Of a stretch of 51,224 nt of DNA, positions 2,758 through 50,319 are shown piece by piece. The notes beneath the pieces were generated by a model. That model ran no database searches, was not told the DNA's origin, and worked only from the letters and a program-made list of their open reading frames with translations. The translations under genes were made by a program, and so were the position numbers. Position 1 is the stretch's first letter. The number at the start of each line of letters is the position of its first letter. Source of the DNA: Mycobacterium phage prophiGD17-1; the sequence record MW584165.1; one strand, given 5' to 3'.

Positions 2758-3499
2758 CGGACTGCTTTTCACGCCGCGACGCCGCCACGTCAAGGTCGTC
2801 AATGTCTGGCGGCGGTGGCACCGGCCTACGACGGTCGGCGAGGGAGGTGACTCCAGGCGGCGGTGATTCGTCGGCTTGCCGAGTTTCGCCCGATCTGATG
2901 GGCGGCTTGGCGACCTCAGCGAGCAAGGGGGCGAAGAGCTTTACAACCTCGTCGGCATTGTCGGCATAAGAGGTGGCGATCATCTTGACGATTTCGTCAT
3001 TAAGGAATGACCGTAGTTCCATGTTCCCGGCCATTGCGTTGGCTTTCACGGCCTCCACCTCATCCTCCGACGGGAAGTTGGCGTTGCCGCGCGGCCTTAG
3101 TCGTTCGACCATTTCATTGATGGCGAGGGTGTTGCCTTCCATCACTCTGATGTGCCGGATGATGTCCGAAAATGATTCGGCGACAGCCTCAATTGGTACG
3201 CCCGCCTTGAGGCTGGGGTGCGTGCGGTTCGGTCTCTGATCGGCCGGGGCGGTCTCCAAAAGGATTGGCTCGCCCCCCGCGAGGGTGATGTCAATTGAGC
3301 CGGGCTCCCAGAGCAGTACATCTTCGATCGCCGCCTTCGTGCTCCCTGAGAAGTTTGTGCGGCGCCCGCCCTCCAGGTCGCTGACGAGGCGGGGGGTCAC
3401 GTGTGCTCGATCGGCCAGCGCTTTCGCGGTGTGTATGCGGAGTTGAGCCCGACGAAGCCGGACACGATGCCCTAGCCGCTCGGCGTTGGTCTCACTCAC
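2732..3499 (-). CDS. XRE-family HTH transcriptional repressor (ImmR / CI-like) with a long C-terminal domain
   Basis: N-terminal HTH (LRRAQLRIHTAKALADRAHVTPRLVSDLEGG). GTG start at 3499 preceded by GAGGGGA. Divergent from the cro-like gene; acidic C-terminal tail. Confidence 0.75.
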   Translation of the reverse strand: MSETNAERLGHRVRLRRAQLRIHTAKALADRAHVTPRLVSDLEGGRRTNFSGSTKAAIEDVLLWEPGSIDITLAGGEPILLETAPADQRPNRTHPSLKAGVPIEAVAESFSDIIRHIRVMEGNTLAINEMVERLRPRGNANFPSEDEVEAVKANAMAGNMELRSFLNDEIVKMIATSYADNADEVVKLFAPLLAEVAKPPIRSGETRQADESPPPGVTSLADRRRPVPPPPDIDDLDVAASRREKQSDGERDDDE

Positions 3500-6239: not shown

Positions 6240-6511
6240 GTATCAACGTCATTTACACAGTCGGTGAGCTTCCCGCCACCGTCAACTATGTGCAGGTGGT
6301 CAGCTTGGGTGCTGACCGGCTGGAGCTTCGCGCCGCTGGTCAAATGATCGCCGAGGCATACAGATGCGGCGATGACTGGGCGATTGACATCAAGACGCCA
6401 ACAGCTCGGAACCTGCCCCGTTTCATTCTGGACGACCGTCGCGAAGCAATCGACGCTCTACACCAAATCGGCGCGCTGTACCTCGACCTACGGATGGCGG
6501 TGCAGTCATGA
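6236..6511 (+). CDS. hypothetical protein, paralog B of a tandem pair
   Basis: GTGA overlap. NVIYTVGEL...EAIDALHQIGALYL. Confidence 0.5.
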   Translation: MSINVIYTVGELPATVNYVQVVSLGADRLELRAAGQMIAEAYRCGDDWAIDIKTPTARNLPRFILDDRREAIDALHQIGALYLDLRMAVQS

Positions 6512-6909
6512 GCTACAGCGGTGCCGTGTCCCCGCTCAAGGTCTTGCCGCGCGAATCGGTTGAGCGCGACGAGCTTCCGACGTTCGAATTCACGGGCTCC
6601 GAAGTGGTCGCCGAGATTCGCAGGCTTGCGCAGCGGTTCCCCGACCAGACAGCCGAATGTAAGTACGTCGGCAAGGATGATCGCCCGCACTGCATTGGTG
6701 GGCGCGCGCTCGCCAATCTCGGAGTGCCGCTGGGGATTCTAATCCAGGCCGAGGGCACCGCCCTCGATACGGCGATGTCTCGCCTGCGCATCACGGCAAC
6801 CCATAAGCAGCGCGGTTGGTGCCGGGCGGTGCAGGCGTACCAGGACGAAGGAAAACCGTGGGCCGCAGCGGTCCAGATGGCCAACGCGATGGTAGGTGCG
6901 CTGTCATGA
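6508..6909 (+). CDS. hypothetical protein
   Basis: ATGA overlap; 133-aa ORF. Confidence 0.55.
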   Translation: MSYSGAVSPLKVLPRESVERDELPTFEFTGSEVVAEIRRLAQRFPDQTAECKYVGKDDRPHCIGGRALANLGVPLGILIQAEGTALDTAMSRLRITATHKQRGWCRAVQAYQDEGKPWAAAVQMANAMVGALS

Positions 6910-8662: not shown

Positions 8663-8892
8663 TGACGGCATACGAAGTCTCGGCATTCATCGAGACGAAT
8701 GAGCATCCCGAGCTGATCAGGCTGCGCATGGCCGATGTGATCGAAGGTGCCGGGATAAAGCTCGGAGACATCGCCTTGACGCGGGCCAAGGATCAGGCGC
8801 CAACGAACGGTGACGACAATCCGGCCCGCCAGGGTGATTGCACGAAGCTGTGCGGCGCCCCTGGTTGCGCGTCGTGGGGGTGCCTGTCATGA
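8662..8892 (+). CDS. hypothetical protein
   Basis: TGATG 1-nt overlap with the upstream gene. Confidence 0.45.
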   Translation: MTAYEVSAFIETNEHPELIRLRMADVIEGAGIKLGDIALTRAKDQAPTNGDDNPARQGDCTKLCGAPGCASWGCLS

Positions 8893-9935
8893 CCACCGAA
8901 ATCGACTGGGAATCGGTGCCGGACGTTGAGCCCGGCCCGGAGCGGGACTACTTCGGCGTGTACCGCAACGGCAACAATCAGCCGTTGATCATGGCCGAGG
9001 ATGGCAGCAAGCGCTACCCGTACCAGCGCACCACCAACTTCATTGACCAGCTGGAGGATGGCGGCGAGGGCCTGCGGATCTGGACCGAACGCCTCACCTT
9101 GGCCGGTCTGGTTATGTCACCGGAGCTGCGCAAAGAGCTGATGGCGTGGATGGGTGAGCCGCGCGAGCTGTCCGACATCGCCCGGCGCGCAGCACGGCTG
9201 GCGGGGCGCGATGAAAAGCAGGAATGGGGCTCGATGCTCCACCAGATCACCGACGCCATCGACAAGGGCGACATGATGCCCCGCCAGTGGTGGAACGAAA
9301 ACACCAAGCAGATGGAGCCGGTTCCGGTCGCCGAGGTGAACCGCGACGTGGAGGCCTACCGGATGGCCACGCGCTGCCTCACCCATCACGCAGCCGAACA
9401 GATGCACGTCTTCGACCCCTACCGGGTCGCGGGCACGCCTGACCGGGTGTCGAGCTACAGCGCCAACGGCAAGCGTCAGGGCCGCCCGAAGATTGCCGAC
9501 CTCAAGACGGGCACCCTGCATCCCCGGATGGTGGAGGCACAGCTAGCGATGTACTCACGCAGCCTCCCCTATGACCCGCAGGCCGAGGTGAGGTTGGACG
9601 CCGAACCGGTCGACCAGAAGCGCGGCATCGTCATCCACCTGCCGATGAAACAAGCCAGGTGCGAACTGTTTTGGGCTGACCTGACGAAGGGCTGGGCCGA
9701 CTGCAAGGTGGCCCGCGACAAGCATCAGAAGGGCTTGCGCCGCAAGCTGGAGACCCTGGGGCGACTCATCGAGCTTGGCCCCGATGTGCCGCTCATGGAG
9801 CGGGTTGGTCTGTGCGCCAATGTCGATGCCTTGCGCGACCTCTGGAAAGAAGCCGTCGAGCGCGGCGAGTTAACCGAAGACCTCAAGGCGGCATGCCTTG
9901 AACGCCAACAGTTGTTGGCACCAACCAGTAAGTAA
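8889..9935 (+). CDS. RecB-family (PD-(D/E)xK, Cas4-like) exonuclease
   Basis: ATGA overlap. IADLKTG (D-x-K-T-G) followed by QLAMY (Q-h-x-x-Y), the hallmark motifs III and QhxxY of RecB/Cas4-family nucleases. Confidence 0.6.
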   Translation: MTTEIDWESVPDVEPGPERDYFGVYRNGNNQPLIMAEDGSKRYPYQRTTNFIDQLEDGGEGLRIWTERLTLAGLVMSPELRKELMAWMGEPRELSDIARRAARLAGRDEKQEWGSMLHQITDAIDKGDMMPRQWWNENTKQMEPVPVAEVNRDVEAYRMATRCLTHHAAEQMHVFDPYRVAGTPDRVSSYSANGKRQGRPKIADLKTGTLHPRMVEAQLAMYSRSLPYDPQAEVRLDAEPVDQKRGIVIHLPMKQARCELFWADLTKGWADCKVARDKHQKGLRRKLETLGRLIELGPDVPLMERVGLCANVDALRDLWKEAVERGELTEDLKAACLERQQLLAPTSK

Positions 9936-9953
9936 CAGAAGGGAATACGCAAC

Positions 9954-10403
9954 ATGACTGCATGGGAAGATATCGACGTTCCACAGGGGGCGTTTGTCGG
10001 ATGGGGTGACGCCAAGGGTCAGCACGTGACCGGCAAGGTGCTGGAGTACGCCGAGCGCGGCGGCACCGACTTCAACGGCGGCACTTGCCCGCTACTGACG
10101 GTCGAACTCACCGAGGCTGCCGCATCATTCAACAAGGCGGGACAGCGCACCGACTTTCCGGCTGGGGATCTGGTCAACATCACCTGCGGACAGGTCTCGC
10201 TCAAGCGTGCCGTTAAGGCGGCGGCACTCGAAGCCGGTGACCTGGTGAAGATCACGCTGGAGGACTTCACGAAGACGCAGAACGGCACCGTGAAGGTGTT
10301 TGGCATCAAGGTGGCGCGCGGTGCAGGTGGACACGTCGCGCCGCCCGCGACCGCCAGCACCGGATTCGGTAGCACCGCCGACGATTCCACTCCACCGTTC
10401 TGA
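9954..10403 (+). CDS. hypothetical protein
   Basis: AGAAGGGAA RBS; 149 aa. Confidence 0.55.
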   Translation: MTAWEDIDVPQGAFVGWGDAKGQHVTGKVLEYAERGGTDFNGGTCPLLTVELTEAAASFNKAGQRTDFPAGDLVNITCGQVSLKRAVKAAALEAGDLVKITLEDFTKTQNGTVKVFGIKVARGAGGHVAPPATASTGFGSTADDSTPPF

Positions 10404-10531
10404 TCGACGGCTGGTCGCGCCTGCGGTGAGGACATGGGCCAGCGCGCTAATGCAGGCATTGGGCGCGGACCTTCAGATTGGCCCATGTCACCAGTACCCC
10501 CAAATTCCAAGGTATAGAAAGGATTTAACAA

Positions 10532-11002
10532 ATGGCTATCAGCAAGGCGGCGCTACTCGATGTCATCGATGGCGCCCTGAAAGCCCACACAGAAGACCAG
10601 CAGCGCTACGACGCCGAGGTCAAGGAATGGCAGCGCAAGCGGCGTGAGAAGTGGGACGCCGAGGCGGTCCCCCGCCTCGGCAGCCTGCGGGACATGTTGA
10701 CGACCAAGCTCAAAGCAGGCCAGGTCGTTACCGACAGGGACATTTCCAATGCGATTGGCCCAGACCTGGACGGCTACAACCGCAACGTCAGTTATGTGAC
10801 GTGGGAACCGAATTCGAAGCCCAGCTACAACCAAGTCAAGCCCGTACCTCACCTCAACGTCTCGACACTCAATCAGCTCAAGTCAGCGCTGTCGGTTATC
10901 GACGGCGAATCCATCTCGACAAGCACCCTGTCCCAGTGGGGTTTCCGCAACCTCGGATTCCTGTTCAAGTCCGCTACTGAACTCACCAAGGAAGGCAATT
11001 GA
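10532..11002 (+). CDS. hypothetical protein
   Basis: AAAGGA RBS; 156 aa. Confidence 0.55.
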   Translation: MAISKAALLDVIDGALKAHTEDQQRYDAEVKEWQRKRREKWDAEAVPRLGSLRDMLTTKLKAGQVVTDRDISNAIGPDLDGYNRNVSYVTWEPNSKPSYNQVKPVPHLNVSTLNQLKSALSVIDGESISTSTLSQWGFRNLGFLFKSATELTKEGN

Positions 11003-11865
11003 CCATGCCCGTATCCATGTGGATTTTCATCGTCCTGGCGGTGCTCGCCGTCATTGGCGTGATCATCGGCATCTTCGCCCGAGGCGAAGAGCGCGCGGTG
11101 AGCTTCGCAGGCGCGATTGTCGCCGGAGTTGTCGGCCTGGTGTTCTTCGCGTTCGCCGCGACGACCGTCGTTGGCACGCGCCAGATCGGCATCGAGACGA
11201 AGTTCGGCCGCCCCACTGGCACGACGCTCACCAACGGCCTGCACCTCAAGTCGCCGGTCACCTCGGTAACCGAGATGGACGGTGCCGTGCAGATCGACCA
11301 GCACAAGGACAATGGACGTATCAAGGTCCGGCTGGGCAACAGCTCGACAGCGGACGCTGACGTGTCGGTGCGCTGGCAGATCAAGCCGGACGCGGCACCC
11401 GAATTATTCTTGCAATACAAGACATTCGACAACGTGCGCATCAACCTGGTGACCCGCAACCTACAGGTTGCCCTCAACGAGGTGTTCGCAACGTTCGATC
11501 CTCTGGCGCCGAAGAACCTTGACCGTTCACCGCTGCCCGAGCTGTCGACGCAGGCGAAGAACATTCTGGCCGCGAAGGTCGGCAGTCAGGTCGAGATTCT
11601 GGATGTCGCGGTGCCCACCATCGACTACGACGACGGCACCGAGCAGAAGATCAACCAGCTCAACCAGGAACGGGCGGCGACCGCTGTCGCCGAGCAGGCC
11701 AAGAAGACCGCCGTAGAGCAGGCCAAGGCCAACGGCGAGTTGGCCGGATCGGTCTCGCGCGACCCCAACGTCCTGGTCTCGAAGTGCTTGGACATCGCCC
11801 GCGAGAAGGGCTTGGCGCTTCTGTGCTGGCCCACAACCCCTGTCCCCACCATCCCCGTCAAGTAA
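10999..11865 (+). CDS. SPFH / band-7 (stomatin-prohibitin-HflKC) family membrane protein
   Basis: N-terminal TM helix, then GIETKFGRPTGTTLTNGLHLKSPV (the characteristic band-7 PGLHFK-like motif). Overlaps the upstream stop. Start is TTG 10999 or ATG 11005. Confidence 0.65.
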   Translation: MTMPVSMWIFIVLAVLAVIGVIIGIFARGEERAVSFAGAIVAGVVGLVFFAFAATTVVGTRQIGIETKFGRPTGTTLTNGLHLKSPVTSVTEMDGAVQIDQHKDNGRIKVRLGNSSTADADVSVRWQIKPDAAPELFLQYKTFDNVRINLVTRNLQVALNEVFATFDPLAPKNLDRSPLPELSTQAKNILAAKVGSQVEILDVAVPTIDYDDGTEQKINQLNQERAATAVAEQAKKTAVEQAKANGELAGSVSRDPNVLVSKCLDIAREKGLALLCWPTTPVPTIPVK

Positions 11866-11936
11866 GGCGGCGGCTGGCGGCGGGTGTCCCCCCGCCCCGC
11901 CGTCAGCCGTCCAAAACCCCCAGAGAGGCAACCGCA

Positions 11937-13133
11937 GTGAATCGCATCCCCGGCCACAACCTGTTGAACTTCGCCAGCCAGATCGATGACAACACCATCG
12001 AGCAGGCCAAGGAAACGGCATCCATGCCGTTCATCCACCCGCACGTTGCACTCATGCCGGACGCGCACAGCGGCAAGGGCTCGGCGGTCGGCACCGTCAT
12101 CCCCACAGTCGGCGCTGTCATCCCGGCAGCGGTCGGCGTAGACATCGGGTGCGGCATGATCGCGGTGCGCACCGCCTACGTCGGTGCCCATATCGACGGC
12201 CGGGACTTGTCGAAGCTGCGCGCCTCGGTGGAGTCGGCCATCCCGCTCTCCCCAGGCAACTACAACCGGAGCCTGGACCGGTTCGACTTCACTGCCGAGA
12301 AGATCGCCGGACTTGAGCACATGGCCAAGTACGACGTTGATCTGTCGCACTCGCCGAAGTGGCGCGAGCAGCTGGGCAGCCTCGGCGGCGGCAACCATTT
12401 CATCGAACTATGCGTCGACAACTACGAGCGGGTGTGGCTATTCCTGCATTCCGGTTCACGCGGTGTCGGCAACAAGATCGCCCAGAAGCACATCAAGGTG
12501 GCTCAGGACTTGTGCAAACGGTACTGGATTGACCTGCCGAACCGTGACCTCGCCTACCTGGCTGAGGACACCGACGAATTCAACTCGTACATCAAGGAAT
12601 TGGCGTGGGCGCAGCGTTTCGCCTACCTAAACCGTGCCGAAATGATGGACCGCTTCCTGCGGGCATTCGCGCACTGGATGGGCTCCGACCCGACCAACGC
12701 CGACGAGGTGGCCAGTATCGAGGTCGAGCGCATCAACTGCCACCACAACTACACCGCCCGGCAGAAGATCGGGAACGTCGATGTGTGGCTGACCCGCAAG
12801 GGCGCTATCGACGCCAATGAGGGTGTTATGGGCGTCATCCCCGGCTCGATGGGCACCCGCTCGTATGTGGTGCGCGGCAAGGGCAACCCGGCAGGCCTGT
12901 ATTCAGCACCGCACGGCGCCGGACGCCGGTTCTCGCGCACCAAGGCCCGCGAACTGTTCACCGCCGACGACTTGGCCAAGGCCATGGCCGGTATCGAATA
13001 CCGGCACGGTGAGGCGTGGATCGATGAGATTCCGCAGGCATACAAGGACATTGACGTTGTGATGGACGACGCCGCCGAGTTGGTCGAGGTCGTCGCCGAG
13101 CTGCGCCAGGTCATGAACGTGAAGGGACAGTGA
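11937..13133 (+). CDS. rtcB: RtcB-family RNA ligase
   Basis: MPDAHSGKGSAVG, GGGNHF, HSGSRGVG and CHHNY are diagnostic RtcB motifs. GTG start at 11937 after AGAGAGG, aligning with the N-terminus of E. coli RtcB. The table's 11784 start is rejected. Confidence 0.85.
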   Translation: MNRIPGHNLLNFASQIDDNTIEQAKETASMPFIHPHVALMPDAHSGKGSAVGTVIPTVGAVIPAAVGVDIGCGMIAVRTAYVGAHIDGRDLSKLRASVESAIPLSPGNYNRSLDRFDFTAEKIAGLEHMAKYDVDLSHSPKWREQLGSLGGGNHFIELCVDNYERVWLFLHSGSRGVGNKIAQKHIKVAQDLCKRYWIDLPNRDLAYLAEDTDEFNSYIKELAWAQRFAYLNRAEMMDRFLRAFAHWMGSDPTNADEVASIEVERINCHHNYTARQKIGNVDVWLTRKGAIDANEGVMGVIPGSMGTRSYVVRGKGNPAGLYSAPHGAGRRFSRTKARELFTADDLAKAMAGIEYRHGEAWIDEIPQAYKDIDVVMDDAAELVEVVAELRQVMNVKGQ

Positions 13134-13408
13134 CCATGGCACAGCACGAGATGCGCGACCCGTCCGAGAATCGGTGCGTCGCCCGCAAGATAGATGGCGC
13201 CTTCTACCGGGTGTCGTGGAACGGCTCACCCGGCGGTGATGTGATCCTCCCCGAGGGCGCGTTGGGTGTCGTGCGGTCGCCTGTGTCCCACCACAACGAC
13301 CGCGTGGCCACCATCGACCGGCCCGTGGTGCGCGTAACGCCACTGGGGCGCACATGGCGTATCGGCTACAACATCGACGGCCAGTTTCGCGTCGAGGCCA
13401 TCGCATGA
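13130..13408 (+). CDS. hypothetical protein
   Basis: GTGA overlap with rtcB; alternative ATG at 13136. Confidence 0.5.
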   Translation: MTMAQHEMRDPSENRCVARKIDGAFYRVSWNGSPGGDVILPEGALGVVRSPVSHHNDRVATIDRPVVRVTPLGRTWRIGYNIDGQFRVEAIA

Positions 13409-14115
13409 GGCTTTTCAGCACATGCCGCGACTGCGGTGAGGCCATGTTGGTCACCAGCATTGACGACACGGTGCATCCGACATGCGAGCCGAAGCCGACC
13501 GCCGTCGACATTCAGTGCGCCGAGTTCCTGGCCGCTGTGCAGGCCGGTGACGACGCTCGCGCCGACGAGCTGGCCGCGACCATCGATGCCGCCGAACGGC
13601 CCACCTTGCGCGGCTCAGCCCTGTACTACAGCCAGTCCCTCGGCTGGCCGGTGTTCCCACTCAAGGCCGGGAGCAAGGAACCGGCCACGCTCAAGGGATT
13701 CAAGGACGCCACCACGAACCGGCGCCGCATCGAAGCCTGGTGGAACGGCAACCCCAACTACAACATTGGGCTTGCTACCGGCCACGCCTTCGATGTGGTG
13801 GACATCGACCCCGGTCCGGGTGGCCGCGAGTCTCTGGCGCAGCTGGAGCAGGCGGGCAGCCTGCCCGACGTTCACGGCTATGTGGTCACCGCAGGCAACC
13901 GCGCCGAAGGCCGACCAGCTGGCATTCACCTGTACGTCAAAGCCACCGGACGCGGCAACCGTGCTGGCTTCCTACCCGGCATCGATTATCGCGGAACGGG
14001 TGGCTATGTCGTCGGCGCCCCATCCACCCTCGGCAACCACCAGAGCTGGCAATGGCTCATGCGGCCATCACCAGATATCAAGGCACACAACAACACTGAA
14101 AGGAAAGTGGCATGA
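13405..14115 (+). CDS. bifunctional DNA primase/polymerase (PrimPol) N-terminal domain protein
   Basis: ATGA overlap. GWPVFPLKAGSKEP...KDATTN...IEAWW..NPNYNIGLATG..FDVVDID matches the Prim-Pol domain signature. N-terminal Cys cluster. Confidence 0.65.
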   Translation: MRLFSTCRDCGEAMLVTSIDDTVHPTCEPKPTAVDIQCAEFLAAVQAGDDARADELAATIDAAERPTLRGSALYYSQSLGWPVFPLKAGSKEPATLKGFKDATTNRRRIEAWWNGNPNYNIGLATGHAFDVVDIDPGPGGRESLAQLEQAGSLPDVHGYVVTAGNRAEGRPAGIHLYVKATGRGNRAGFLPGIDYRGTGGYVVGAPSTLGNHQSWQWLMRPSPDIKAHNNTERKVA

Positions 14116-48202: not shown

Positions 48203-48673
48203 CTACCCGGCGTCGGCGAATTCGGGTTGCTCGCGCAGGTGCCAGCCTGGCGCAACGTCGCCTGTGTCGTAGTAGCCCAGGAATAGTCTGATGGCCTCGG
48301 TTGGTGTCAATACCTCTGATGGGCGTACCGGGTAAGCGCTATCGCCGTTGTAGACCACTTCAGTCTCGGATTCGTTTGCCGCAGAAGGTCTTCCGATGGT
48401 GTAATGGCGCCGCACACCGTCAGCCTCAAGCCGTTTAATCTCGACCGTGAGCCTGCCATCCCTACCACAGGCTTGGATGCGCTCAGGCGAGTACGGGAAC
48501 TCATCGTATCGGACCTCTGGCGCAACCGGGTAGATTGAGTAGTACGTGTATCCCTTTGTGCCTAAACGATTTATGCCCGCTGCGAGCTGGCCTGGTATTT
48601 CTTCCGTAAAGTCACTGGTACGCATTTTGGCCAGGTTTGATTCTGCGATGTGGGTTGGCTTGTCAATCCTCAT
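48203..48673 (-). CDS. putative immunity protein for the upstream polymorphic toxin
   Basis: Its ATG overlaps the toxin stop codon (ATGA on the minus strand). 156 aa with no secretion signal. Confidence 0.6.
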   Translation of the reverse strand: MRIDKPTHIAESNLAKMRTSDFTEEIPGQLAAGINRLGTKGYTYYSIYPVAPEVRYDEFPYSPERIQACGRDGRLTVEIKRLEADGVRRHYTIGRPSAANESETEVVYNGDSAYPVRPSEVLTPTEAIRLFLGYYDTGDVAPGWHLREQPEFADAG

Positions 48674-50319
48674 TCCGCAGGAACCTCCACAACTCTCACC
48701 GAGGTGATCTTCACTGTTTCCACGACGCCTTGTTCATTGGTGATCGTCACATAGGCCGGATTCTCATACGACACAGCATCATCGAACGCCCTCTGCTGGC
48801 CATCCCTCGACGCACCCCCCGACTTCACCTCGATGCCCTCGTACGTACCATCCGGCTTACGGGCATGTCCGTCGTAGTAGCGGCCATGGTCAACGCCGTC
48901 CACTCTCGACTTTTTCGTCTCGGTGCTCACCCAACGCCCGGTCTCGTCTTTGTACTTGGCGACACCCTCTGCCTCTGGTTGGCGACCGTATCCCCGAGCT
49001 GTCCCGCCTCGGCCTGTGAACGTGCCGATGGAATCGCGGTCGTCGCCACGGTTGATGCCCTCGCCGGGCCGTCCAGTCCGGGCCTCCATCACCGTCACAC
49101 CGCTGACCGCAGCCTCTTTCGAGAGGTCAAGGGCTGGCGGTATGGCGACGACCGCGCCACCAGCAAGCAAGCCAGCACCGGCAACAGCGACGGGCGCAGC
49201 GACCGGTGTGGCAGCCCCACCGGTAAAGACCTCACCGACGCCTGCCGCAGCCATCATGTCGTAGCCGACCGCCATCATGCCGACCCCAGCTGCCATCTGG
49301 ATTGTCTGGCCGGGGTTGTCGATCATGGCCTGCCCCAAGGATGCAGCGGCATTCACCACCGGGGCCACGGTGTTGTATATCTCGTTACCGAAAAGCTCAA
49401 CCTGCATCTGTACCAACGACTTTAGGGTGTCGATAACCATCGATGCACCCTGAATGATCGGCGCCAGCAGCAGCGCGAGTGACTGCACTTCGGACTTGAA
49501 CTGGTTGACGATGTTGCGGATGTCGGCGGCGATTTTCTTTATTTCGTCGTCGTCTTCGCCGGTAATCCAGTCCACGACCTGTTTGGCACCGGTCAGCGGA
49601 TTTACCAAGCGGGCCAACAGGTCCAGTATCGACGCATGCGCCGTATCGATCTTGGCCGCGTAGTCGTTGAGCTTGGTGCCCATGGTGCCGCACATGCCGC
49701 CGACCTCGCCGACAGCACCGTCAATCGTCTTGAACGCACTATCGATCTTGGGACCTTCGGGTATCTGCTGGGCCTGCGCGGTTGCCTGCGCCCCCGCCAG
49801 TCCGGCCTGCTGAGCGGTGAATGCCGCACCGGCAGCCGTCCAAGCGGCGCCAGCGGCGCGCAGCTTCGCCGAATCGCCGTTTGGCCAAATCATTCCGATG
49901 AACGGCTCCACCAGGAACCAACCCGGTGGGTCGCCAACATCGCTACCCACCGCAGACGGCGGGGCCCCGGCCTTCACCGAGGGAGTGGGCGAGGCGGCGG
50001 GCAGTGGGTCGCCGCCCTTGCCGTCGATATTGGACGCCACCTCGGCACGCGAATAGTTAGTCGCCGAAGCCCGGATGCCGTCAGCGGCCCGCCCCGCACC
50101 GTTGGACACGTCCACCATCGCCTCAAGGAGTTCCTTGGCTGACGAGTCATACGACCGCGCGAACACGACCCCGGCGGGGTCATCCCCACCCATACCTGCC
50201 GAACTCGACAGCGCCGACTGCAATGCCGACAGCGCAGAACCCCACCCGCCCACCGAGCTGGAAACCGTTCTACCGGCGCCATCGAGGGCAACCGGGTCGA
50301 CATGAATCGGGGGTGCCAT
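48670..50319 (-). CDS. ESX/type VII-associated polymorphic toxin: WXG100-like N-terminal domain with YxxxE export motif, central Ala/Gly-rich hydrophobic region, C-terminal putative PD-(D/E)xK-type nuclease toxin domain
   Basis: 549 aa. N-terminal ~100 aa helical domain with a GGWGSA motif and NYSRAE (Y-x-x-x-E). A second W-x-G-like segment (IWPNGDS). C-terminal KPDGTYEGIEVK (PD...E-x-K). Directly downstream of two WXG100 genes, with a 2-nt gap. Confidence 0.75.
   Translation of the reverse strand: MAPPIHVDPVALDGAGRTVSSSVGGWGSALSALQSALSSSAGMGGDDPAGVVFARSYDSSAKELLEAMVDVSNGAGRAADGIRASATNYSRAEVASNIDGKGGDPLPAASPTPSVKAGAPPSAVGSDVGDPPGWFLVEPFIGMIWPNGDSAKLRAAGAAWTAAGAAFTAQQAGLAGAQATAQAQQIPEGPKIDSAFKTIDGAVGEVGGMCGTMGTKLNDYAAKIDTAHASILDLLARLVNPLTGAKQVVDWITGEDDDEIKKIAADIRNIVNQFKSEVQSLALLLAPIIQGASMVIDTLKSLVQMQVELFGNEIYNTVAPVVNAAASLGQAMIDNPGQTIQMAAGVGMMAVGYDMMAAAGVGEVFTGGAATPVAAPVAVAGAGLLAGGAVVAIPPALDLSKEAAVSGVTVMEARTGRPGEGINRGDDRDSIGTFTGRGGTARGYGRQPEAEGVAKYKDETGRWVSTETKKSRVDGVDHGRYYDGHARKPDGTYEGIEVKSGGASRDGQQRAFDDAVSYENPAYVTITNEQGVVETVKITSVRVVEVPAE

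Follow-up and report, generated by a model that had tools for sequence, protein, structure and literature searches.

The 51,224-nt sequence of Mycobacterium phage prophiGD17-1 (MW584165.1; hereafter the window) is a complete 51-kb temperate phage (prophage) of Mycobacterium abscessus, of the prophiGD05-1 type and with about 63% G+C, whose early region encodes an RtcB RNA ligase directly preceded by a band-7/SPFH membrane protein. The best overall explanation, to which we give an even chance, is that RtcB is a repair ligase carried in a cargo slot of the prophage and that the band-7 protein is an optional accessory of the same theme. The slot follows a conserved hairpin (10431-10493), lies between the recombination and replication modules and holds here the genes for a 156-aa protein, band-7 and RtcB. 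An earlier note on this DNA had located the pair amid replication genes of the early region, and rightly so: a PD-(D/E)XK exonuclease gene (8889-9935) lies 5' of it and a Prim-Pol gene (13405-14115) lies 3'. Both genes of the pair, which the note had put at 10999-13133, are real. Their starts had to be moved to 11005 and 11937, and consequently the two genes do not overlap.

The RtcB gene (11937-13133, + strand) encodes a 398-aa, intein-free member of the family of RNA 3'-phosphate/2',3'-cyclic-phosphate to 5'-OH ligases. Its open reading frame (ORF), 11784-13133, matches Pfam RtcB (PF01139) over the whole model (positions 1-426 of 426; E=1.5e-113; 380.7 bits against a cutoff of 27) and phrog_1075 (E=5.9e-159). 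We place the start at GTG 11937 (MNRIPGHNLL..., with GAGAGG upstream) and not at 11784, because all homologues, including Escherichia coli RtcB, align from there. The phage protein is 45% identical to the E. coli enzyme and belongs to the same length class. Residues D69, C72, N153/H154, H171, H269/H270 and H326 are invariant with respect to E. coli RtcB (D75, C78, N167/H168, H185, H280/H281 and H337), and D42 and H44 correspond to E. coli D48 and H50. The metal ligands (D69, C72, H154, H171 and H270) and the H326 of the HGAGR motif, which accepts guanosine monophosphate (GMP), are thus all kept. An alignment with Pyrococcus horikoshii RtcB agrees on the active-site residues, and RtcB entries of the PDB are matched at E=3e-29. 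The RtcB is complete with every signature motif, as had been claimed, and the mutated metal ligands that would have spoken against a working enzyme are not there. Judging from its sequence, the phage protein is very probably a functional RNA ligase.

Homologues of this RtcB are found in 701 phage records. The protein is 97-98% identical to annotated M. abscessus prophage proteins (prophiGD05-1 gp29 and prophiGD12-2 gp28) and 64-70% identical to proteins of cluster K and M phages. RtcB-like RNA ligases encoded by actinobacteriophages (clusters K1/K6, cluster M, and phages of Gordonia and Rhodococcus) are its closest known counterparts. Assignment to the RtcB2-PrfH type, or to any other specific RtcB subfamily, was rejected: scores stayed below the NCBIfam cutoffs (153.9 bits against 271.8 for TIGR03073) and no RF-1-like gene is a neighbour. 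In contrast to the intein-free copy of the window, the RtcB gene of one sister prophage (L209, IMGVR_UViG_2802429165_000001, a contig also represented by L055 and L132) is interrupted in frame by a 347-aa intein placed exactly at the metal-binding Cys (…GVDIG/CVDRDT…FVTGN/CGMIAVRT…, slashes at the junctions).

The chemistry of RtcB is known from the E. coli and Pyrococcus horikoshii enzymes: a His-GMP intermediate leads to RNA(3')pp(5')G, which is attacked by the 5'-OH end, any 2',3'-cyclic phosphate being opened first. We hypothesize that the phage enzyme would be made early in lytic growth and would depend on GTP and Mn2+. By analogy with E. coli RtcB, His326 would be guanylylated and GMP passed to the RNA 3'-phosphate, after hydrolysis of the 2',3'-cyclic phosphate; the 5'-OH end would then attack the activated 3' end, resealing the strand. 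The substrate would most likely be tRNA or rRNA cut by metal-independent, cyclic-phosphate-forming ribotoxins, whether these come from the host or from competing prophages. Resealing would keep translation running, and a separate end-healing enzyme would not be needed. The earlier note had stated that no Pnkp-like healing enzyme is present, and this is borne out by the best 25 of the 71 PHROG families matched by 36 early-region ORFs and by the prophiGD05-1 annotation: neither holds a Pnkp, RtcA or archease-like protein, or a Pnkp/Rnl healing-and-sealing module (kinase/phosphatase plus ATP-dependent RNA ligase). ARAGORN found no tRNA gene in the window. Since both a healing enzyme and a tRNA gene are missing from these searches, direct sealing of 2',3'-cyclic-phosphate/5'-OH ends, the established chemistry of RtcB, is a reasonable reading.

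A counter-defence role is the standard proposal for phage RtcB. Pope et al. (2011) proposed that RtcB of cluster K mycobacteriophages counters tRNA cleavage by the host, an argument based on the co-occurrence of RtcB with phage tRNAs (PMC3203893). The logic resembles that of phage T4, whose Pnkp and Rnl1 oppose the anticodon nuclease PrrC, in that a phage would reseal tRNA cut by a host ribotoxin. It differs in enzyme family and in chemistry: RtcB joins 3'-phosphate or 2',3'-cyclic-phosphate ends to 5'-OH ends directly with GTP. Overexpression screens gave mild toxicity for Adephagia RtcB and for the LeBron Band-7-like protein, and nothing more specific. PADLOC returned no match for band-7, RtcB or their three small neighbours. 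We consider it rather probable that the role of RtcB is anti-ribotoxin activity or repair of the translation apparatus.

The position of RtcB amid recombination and replication genes could suggest that it serves DNA metabolism instead, joining or capping DNA 3'-phosphate ends left by recombination or replication. E. coli RtcB is said to be able to act on DNA 3'-phosphate ends in vitro (Shuman laboratory). Yet the closest homologues in other phages, at 64-70% identity, keep no company with replication genes: they lie beside tRNA arrays or close to the right-hand terminus of the genome. The slot, too, takes up cargo of various kinds, and in viral contigs genes of RNA repair are over-represented around RtcB, namely RNA ligase, RlaP, TROVE/Ro, CCA-adding/PolyA_pol, HD and Metallophos families. 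We regard a role in DNA metabolism as very unlikely.

The gene upstream of RtcB (11005-11865, + strand) encodes a 286-aa band-7/SPFH membrane protein. Pfam Band_7 matches residues 57-238 of the 288-aa ORF 10999-11865 (E=1.5e-19; 71.2 bits against a cutoff of 23.6), which also matches phrog_200 (E=1.4e-59). The likely start is ATG 11005 (MPVSMW...), after the Shine-Dalgarno sequence AAGGAAGG, as in the prophiGD05-1 annotation. A database entry from M. abscessus, labelled 'SPFH domain-containing protein', has the same sequence (100% identity). An AlphaFold2 (AF2) model built from 20 sequences (predicted local distance difference test, pLDDT, 79.3) has two N-terminal helices, at 3-24 and 28-52, followed by an SPFH core of beta/alpha type and by a long coiled-coil helix that spans some 40 residues (210-251). 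Foldseek against the PDB placed this model near prohibitin (8rrh_B, E=1.3e-12), HflK/C, stomatin and erlin (1e-12 to 1e-10) and QmcA (1e-7), so that the SPFH fold proposed by the earlier note is confirmed by both the Pfam match and the structural likeness. The likeness came from fold comparison only, no member of the family having a sequence-level match in the PDB.

Hydropathy gives the protein two N-terminal transmembrane (TM) segments, at about 5-25 and 32-57, with positive charges after the second. Because of these two segments and charges, the likelier topology would be a two-helix hairpin anchor with a cytoplasmic SPFH domain. The cage-forming SPFH proteins (HflK/C-FtsH, prohibitin, stomatin, erlin and QmcA-YbbJ) share the predicted combination of SPFH domain, long helix and N-terminal anchor, and by analogy the phage protein would probably assemble into an SPFH-type oligomeric cage. 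It differs from the solved cages in that identity is only 13-20% (Foldseek E=1e-12 to 1e-7), in a conserved C-terminal Cys pair specific to its own family, C261 and C274, both invariant throughout the family alignments, and in the lack of an NfeD/FtsH-type partner gene. It differs from HflK/C in having a two-helix hairpin where those have a single TM segment.

The earlier note had called an SPFH protein unusual in phages, which is wrong: with tblastn, 362 phage records proved to encode a homologue (255 from Mycobacterium, 86 from Streptomyces, 15 from Gordonia and 5 from Rhodococcus), in many cases labelled 'band-7-like membrane protein'. In a word-indexed search, all matches came from Mycobacteriales and their phages. 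Members of the PHROG 200 family (for example prophiGD25-1 gp15, Bongo gp116, Cali gp29 and Trina gp138) are 42-97% identical to the protein from residue ~60 onward and share with it the hydrophobic N-terminus and the invariant residues, including the two C-terminal Cys. Their neighbours differ: band-7 is accompanied by RtcB in the window and in cluster M, by Ro in Trina, by MazG in Bongo and in Forza and Syleon, and by DnaQ or RecET in further prophages of M. abscessus. Chromosomal orthologues, of 57-60% identity, have a common upstream motif, TTGATC(A/G)TACGATTCGGC, containing the palindrome ATCGTACGAT. The motif was read in L015-L017, L019-L021, L025, L028, L029, L031, L032, L036, L038 and L039 (L numbers denote the loci compared), which are apparently chromosomal and mostly from Mycobacterium/Mycolicibacterium. 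In one of them (L019) band-7 is followed by a Ser/Thr kinase gene, and in the longer chromosomal loci a tRNA-Lys / tRNA-Glu-Asp-Phe cluster is found 2-4 kb away from band-7.

The association of band-7 with RtcB recurs beyond the window. In at least 12 sister loci of its own cluster, band-7 precedes RtcB at a distance of ~75 nt (71 nt and the same strand in the window). Cluster M phages (Bongo, L125) have the order tRNA array, RtcB, band-7 and then MazG. An unrelated low-GC viral contig (L201, 7155-8207) has RtcB, a 58-aa protein with two TM segments and then an SPFH lipoprotein; this SPFH protein, with its lipoprotein-type signal …LAGLMATTAAC, is an independent juxtaposition of RtcB and SPFH genes. 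In a Nocardia prophage (L035) band-7 lies 2.2 kb from RtcB-RlaP, and in L015, apparently chromosomal and with the upstream motif of the chromosomal orthologues, RtcB is 1.3 kb from band-7. In Rhodococcus phage Trina a Ro-like gene followed by band-7 stands among tRNAs, and in Streptomyces phage Teutsch band-7 is within a tRNA array. Directly 5' of the Ro-like gene of Trina (L004) lies a 209-nt feature annotated 'tRNA-OTHER' (pseudo; 2852-3060), which may be a Y RNA of the YrlA type that carries a tRNA-like domain.

A similar association has been reported in bacteria. In some of them RtcB adjoins a Band-7 protein and a tRNA-like RNA, 'b7a-tRNA' (Burroughs & Aravind 2016, as cited in bioRxiv 10.1101/312249), and Band-7 and Ro/YrlA contexts interchange according to that preprint. 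In Pseudomonas aeruginosa the SPFH gene paFlo8 is embedded in an rtc locus (2026 paper, PMC13086221). The window resembles the bacterial loci in that the Band-7/SPFH gene immediately adjoins rtcB. It differs from them and from the PaFlo8 locus in having no RtcA or RtcR and in being a phage early operon. The earlier note had treated band-7 and RtcB as unrelated, though their association is in the literature and recurs in phages.

The two genes may nevertheless be unrelated neighbours brought together by phage mosaicism, a serious alternative that we rate a little short of an even chance. The band-7 protein would then have a membrane job of its own, such as scaffolding or restraining an FtsH-like protease (as HflK/C do), superinfection exclusion or membrane stabilisation, and the solved SPFH cages (HflK/C-FtsH and QmcA-YbbJ) indeed act on membrane proteins. 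Several observations weigh against the best explanation or in favour of this alternative. The slot after the hairpin is a cargo hot spot in which the window's cluster shows every combination of the 156-aa gene, band-7 and RtcB: band-7 only in L056/L217, RtcB with only a band-7 remnant in prophiGD12-2 and L129/L207, and neither gene in L214. Most phage lineages with band-7 have no RtcB nearby, among them ~35 prophiGD25-1-like loci, prophiT37-1-like loci, cluster C (Cali), cluster R (Candle) and the Gordonia phages Forza and Syleon, so that the coupling is not obligate. At 73 RtcB-encoding viral loci outside the window's clade, Band_7 was matched by one of 103 immediate-neighbour ORFs, and it is missing from the 25 families listed for 104 second neighbours of viral RtcB. 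Unlike clusters K1 and M, the window has RtcB without tRNA genes, and unlike the bacterial loci, it has no tRNA-like RNA beside band-7. The positive-inside rule, moreover, is the only basis for a cytoplasmic orientation of band-7.

Other neighbours of band-7 point the same way. A recombination exonuclease or RecE/RecT is its more constant neighbour in M. abscessus prophages. A gene for a MazG-like nucleotide pyrophosphohydrolase lies 10-1040 nt after it in Bongo (L003), Forza (L043), Syleon (L044), L112, L118, L121, L122 and L124, which represent several phage lineages not related to one another. MazG thus recurs beside band-7 as a second kind of neighbour, in addition to RtcB, Ro and tRNAs. 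The chromosomal orthologues examined have no RtcB nearby except L015, and L019 pairs with the kinase.

Against mere mosaicism stands the finding that immediate adjacency arose at least three times, in differing orders and in unrelated viruses. To this are added two near-adjacencies, the Ro adjacency, the location of band-7 inside tRNA arrays in three groups of large lytic phages and the same association reported in bacteria (bioRxiv 10.1101/312249; PMC13086221). Such a pattern is unlikely by chance; a rough estimate, as distinct from a formal test, puts the probability in the order of 1e-2. A general enrichment of Band_7 beside viral RtcB was sought and not found, the pairing being recurrent but rare. 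We think that the association, which is recurrent, is probably meaningful but facultative. Band-7 is a separable, optional accessory and not an obligate subunit of RtcB. As a membrane-attached oligomer it would probably share the theme of RNA damage and translation maintenance, as in the loci predicted in bacteria, and it might tether or regulate repair. That band-7 and RtcB act in one pathway is a tentative proposal, to which we give somewhat less than an even chance.

The hairpin that heads the slot (10431-10493, + strand) has an 11-bp outer stem, an inner hairpin, a hypervariable 12-13-nt bulge and a 3' ACCA flank, with a fold energy of -32.5 kcal/mol (z=-3.2). It marks the 3' end of the module formed by the exonuclease and a 149-aa protein and the start of the variable cargo. 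The stems are identical in the sister prophages read, and the 3' bulge has six alleles (GACCTTCAGATT, GACGGTTCAGATT, GAAGGTTCAGATT, GATATTTCCCGAT, GACATTTCCCGAT and CAGTGGCAGCCT). The hairpin also occurs in L001, L046, L049, L053-L056, L101, L129 and L207-L220; within IMG/VR its core is confined to 14 contigs, each of which seems to belong to this type of prophage.

One could imagine that RtcB acts not on damaged host RNA but on an RNA made by the phage, processing or ligating for example a transcript or a small RNA. This hairpin with its ACCA flank would be a candidate: it is structured and conserved, has a hypervariable bulge and opens the cargo slot, and a tRNA-like RNA is reported for the bacterial Band-7/RtcB loci (bioRxiv 10.1101/312249). 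Yet the hairpin is kept in L214, which has neither band-7 nor RtcB, and it was not found upstream of band-7 in any other lineage. Nor is it tRNA-like: ARAGORN did not call a tRNA, Rfam gave no match, and its loop is a tetraloop and not anticodon-like. The chance that such an RNA is the substrate of RtcB seems slight indeed. A tRNA-like 'b7a' RNA was sought with ARAGORN on the window and 45 related loci, with Rfam and by folding both intergenic regions, and none was found here: the E-value scan of 9500-14000 against Rfam gave nothing meaningful, and both regions fold as simple hairpins and not as cloverleaves. We also considered that the band-7 SPFH cage could be a membrane platform for RNA repair that recruits RtcB, of phage or host, together with damaged tRNAs or ribosomes, and in which the hairpin could replace the tRNA-like RNA. 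We hold this to be improbable. If true, it would be the first SPFH scaffold tied to RNA repair as opposed to membrane-protein quality control.

A second, GC-rich hairpin occupies the spacer between band-7 and RtcB (11869-11911, + strand), with a fold energy of -38.6 kcal/mol and z=-2.4 on that strand. One of its stem pairs varies as G·U, A-U or G-C among relatives, and for this reason it is likely to be an RNA-level element, such as a terminator, an attenuator or a stabiliser. In prophiGD12-2 (L002) the interval between gp27 and RtcB, at about 6487-6586, still contains the final ~27 nt of band-7 (…PTIPVK*) together with this hairpin; therefore, a clean deletion removed band-7 and the upstream hairpin there. 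Scans for sigma-70 promoters and intrinsic terminators gave nothing exceeding shuffle expectation.

Bacterial SPFH genes often share an operon with NfeD, as do PaFlo3 and PaFlo4 (PMC13086221) and the QmcA-YbbJ pair (8z5g), and the earlier note had suggested looking for an NfeD-like partner in 9954-11002. Two small genes lie there. The first encodes a 149-aa soluble protein (9954-10403, + strand) with an acidic C-terminal tail (…DDSTPPF) like that of single-stranded DNA-binding protein (SSB). It has no Pfam, PHROG or NCBIfam match, and its AF2 model from the single sequence (pLDDT 60.6) is all-beta with one helix; the Foldseek matches of this low-confidence model are weak and mostly to SSB/PriB, at E of about 0.05. 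The second encodes a 156-aa protein (10532-11002, + strand; phrog_1371, E=1.6e-30), an optional insertion exactly at the start codon of band-7. It is present or absent among sister prophages; in prophiGD05-1 it is missing, and band-7 there follows the same leader directly.

Neither product matches NfeD (at E<=0.01) or any other family in Pfam or NCBIfam, and neither has a hydrophobic or TM segment (maximal Kyte-Doolittle 19-residue means of 0.69 and 0.86 for the two proteins). An OB-like (oligonucleotide/oligosaccharide-binding) beta fold, as in the C-terminal domain of NfeD, may be present in the 149-aa protein. Against a pairing with band-7 count its SSB-type tail, its weak SSB/PriB likeness and its persistence beside the exonuclease in prophiGD12-2, where band-7 has been deleted. 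The 156-aa gene is absent from most sister loci that retain band-7, and the upstream genes differ for the band-7 homologues of other phages. No NfeD-like partner thus emerged from this region, and an SPFH-NfeD operon pair was rejected on Pfam, NCBIfam, hydropathy, synteny, the single-sequence AF2 model and Foldseek. That band-7 belongs to a classical SPFH-NfeD pair with its partner encoded in 9954-11002 is exceedingly improbable. The gene of the 149-aa protein always follows that of the PD-(D/E)XK exonuclease, and the tail reads DDLPPF in prophiGD12-2. From its tail, weak model and synteny, the protein is probably an OB-fold, single-stranded DNA-binding partner of the exonuclease and not NfeD; it is possibly an unrecognised single-stranded DNA-binding or annealing partner.

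The early region reads, in order, PD-(D/E)XK exonuclease, SSB-like 149-aa protein, 156-aa protein, band-7, RtcB, 92-aa protein and Prim-Pol. The exonuclease (+ strand; Cas4/RecB-like), which belongs to the recombination module, matches phrog_466 (E=1.9e-45) and Pfam PDDEXK_1 (E=2.7e-4), its start being placed from the 1047-nt gp26 of prophiGD05-1. The Prim-Pol DNA primase/polymerase of the replication module (+ strand), a module that also includes a primase/helicase, matches Pfam Prim-Pol (E=2.9e-33) and phrog_5852 (E=3.9e-63), with a start taken from gp30 of prophiGD12-2. Between RtcB and Prim-Pol, the 92-aa gene (13130-13408, + strand) begins in overlap with the RtcB stop (GTGA), and its product has no match in Pfam, PHROG or NCBIfam. 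Homologues stand directly 5' of Prim-Pol even in loci that lack RtcB (L056/L217 and L214). An archease-like RtcB cofactor was rejected for this gene, as it has no family match and tracks Prim-Pol and not RtcB.

Over 9900-13400 the window shows 95% identity with Mycobacterium phage prophiGD05-1 (MW584169); with prophiGD12-2 the identity is 96% in the parts that both have. In the left arm of the window, a long leftward ORF (226-1617) takes the position of the tyrosine integrase of prophiGD05-1, and an ORF at the position of its repressor is also present. Beyond the rightward early operon follow the terminase-to-tail genes, by synteny with prophiGD05-1, and a lysin with an amidase domain. A leftward WXG100-type gene lies at the right end: its 549-aa product contains a WXG100-like domain (E=1.6e-7), and an ORF of 156 aa comes next (48203-50319, - strand), the order expected for a secreted polymorphic toxin and its immunity gene, for which the two are candidates.

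The gene pair as such is not new. It is already annotated in GenBank, the prophiGD05-1 annotation containing the same two genes. Actinobacteriophages commonly encode members of either family, and for bacteria a link between Band-7 and RtcB had been predicted before. A modest novelty lies in the recurrence of this link in phages, without the tRNA-like RNA and without NfeD. Taken alone, the finding matters little, the pair being deposited in M. abscessus prophages and the proposal of an anti-ribotoxin RtcB being 15 years old. Its use is as a test bed for the role of the Band-7 protein that goes with RtcB in some bacterial RNA-repair loci: natural variants that are nearly isogenic, with both genes, band-7 only, RtcB only or neither, are available among these M. 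abscessus prophages and among the lytic cluster M phages, which infect M. smegmatis. M. abscessus has many toxin systems and is a target of phage therapy, and whether RtcB widens host range in the face of RNase-based defences is of some practical interest.

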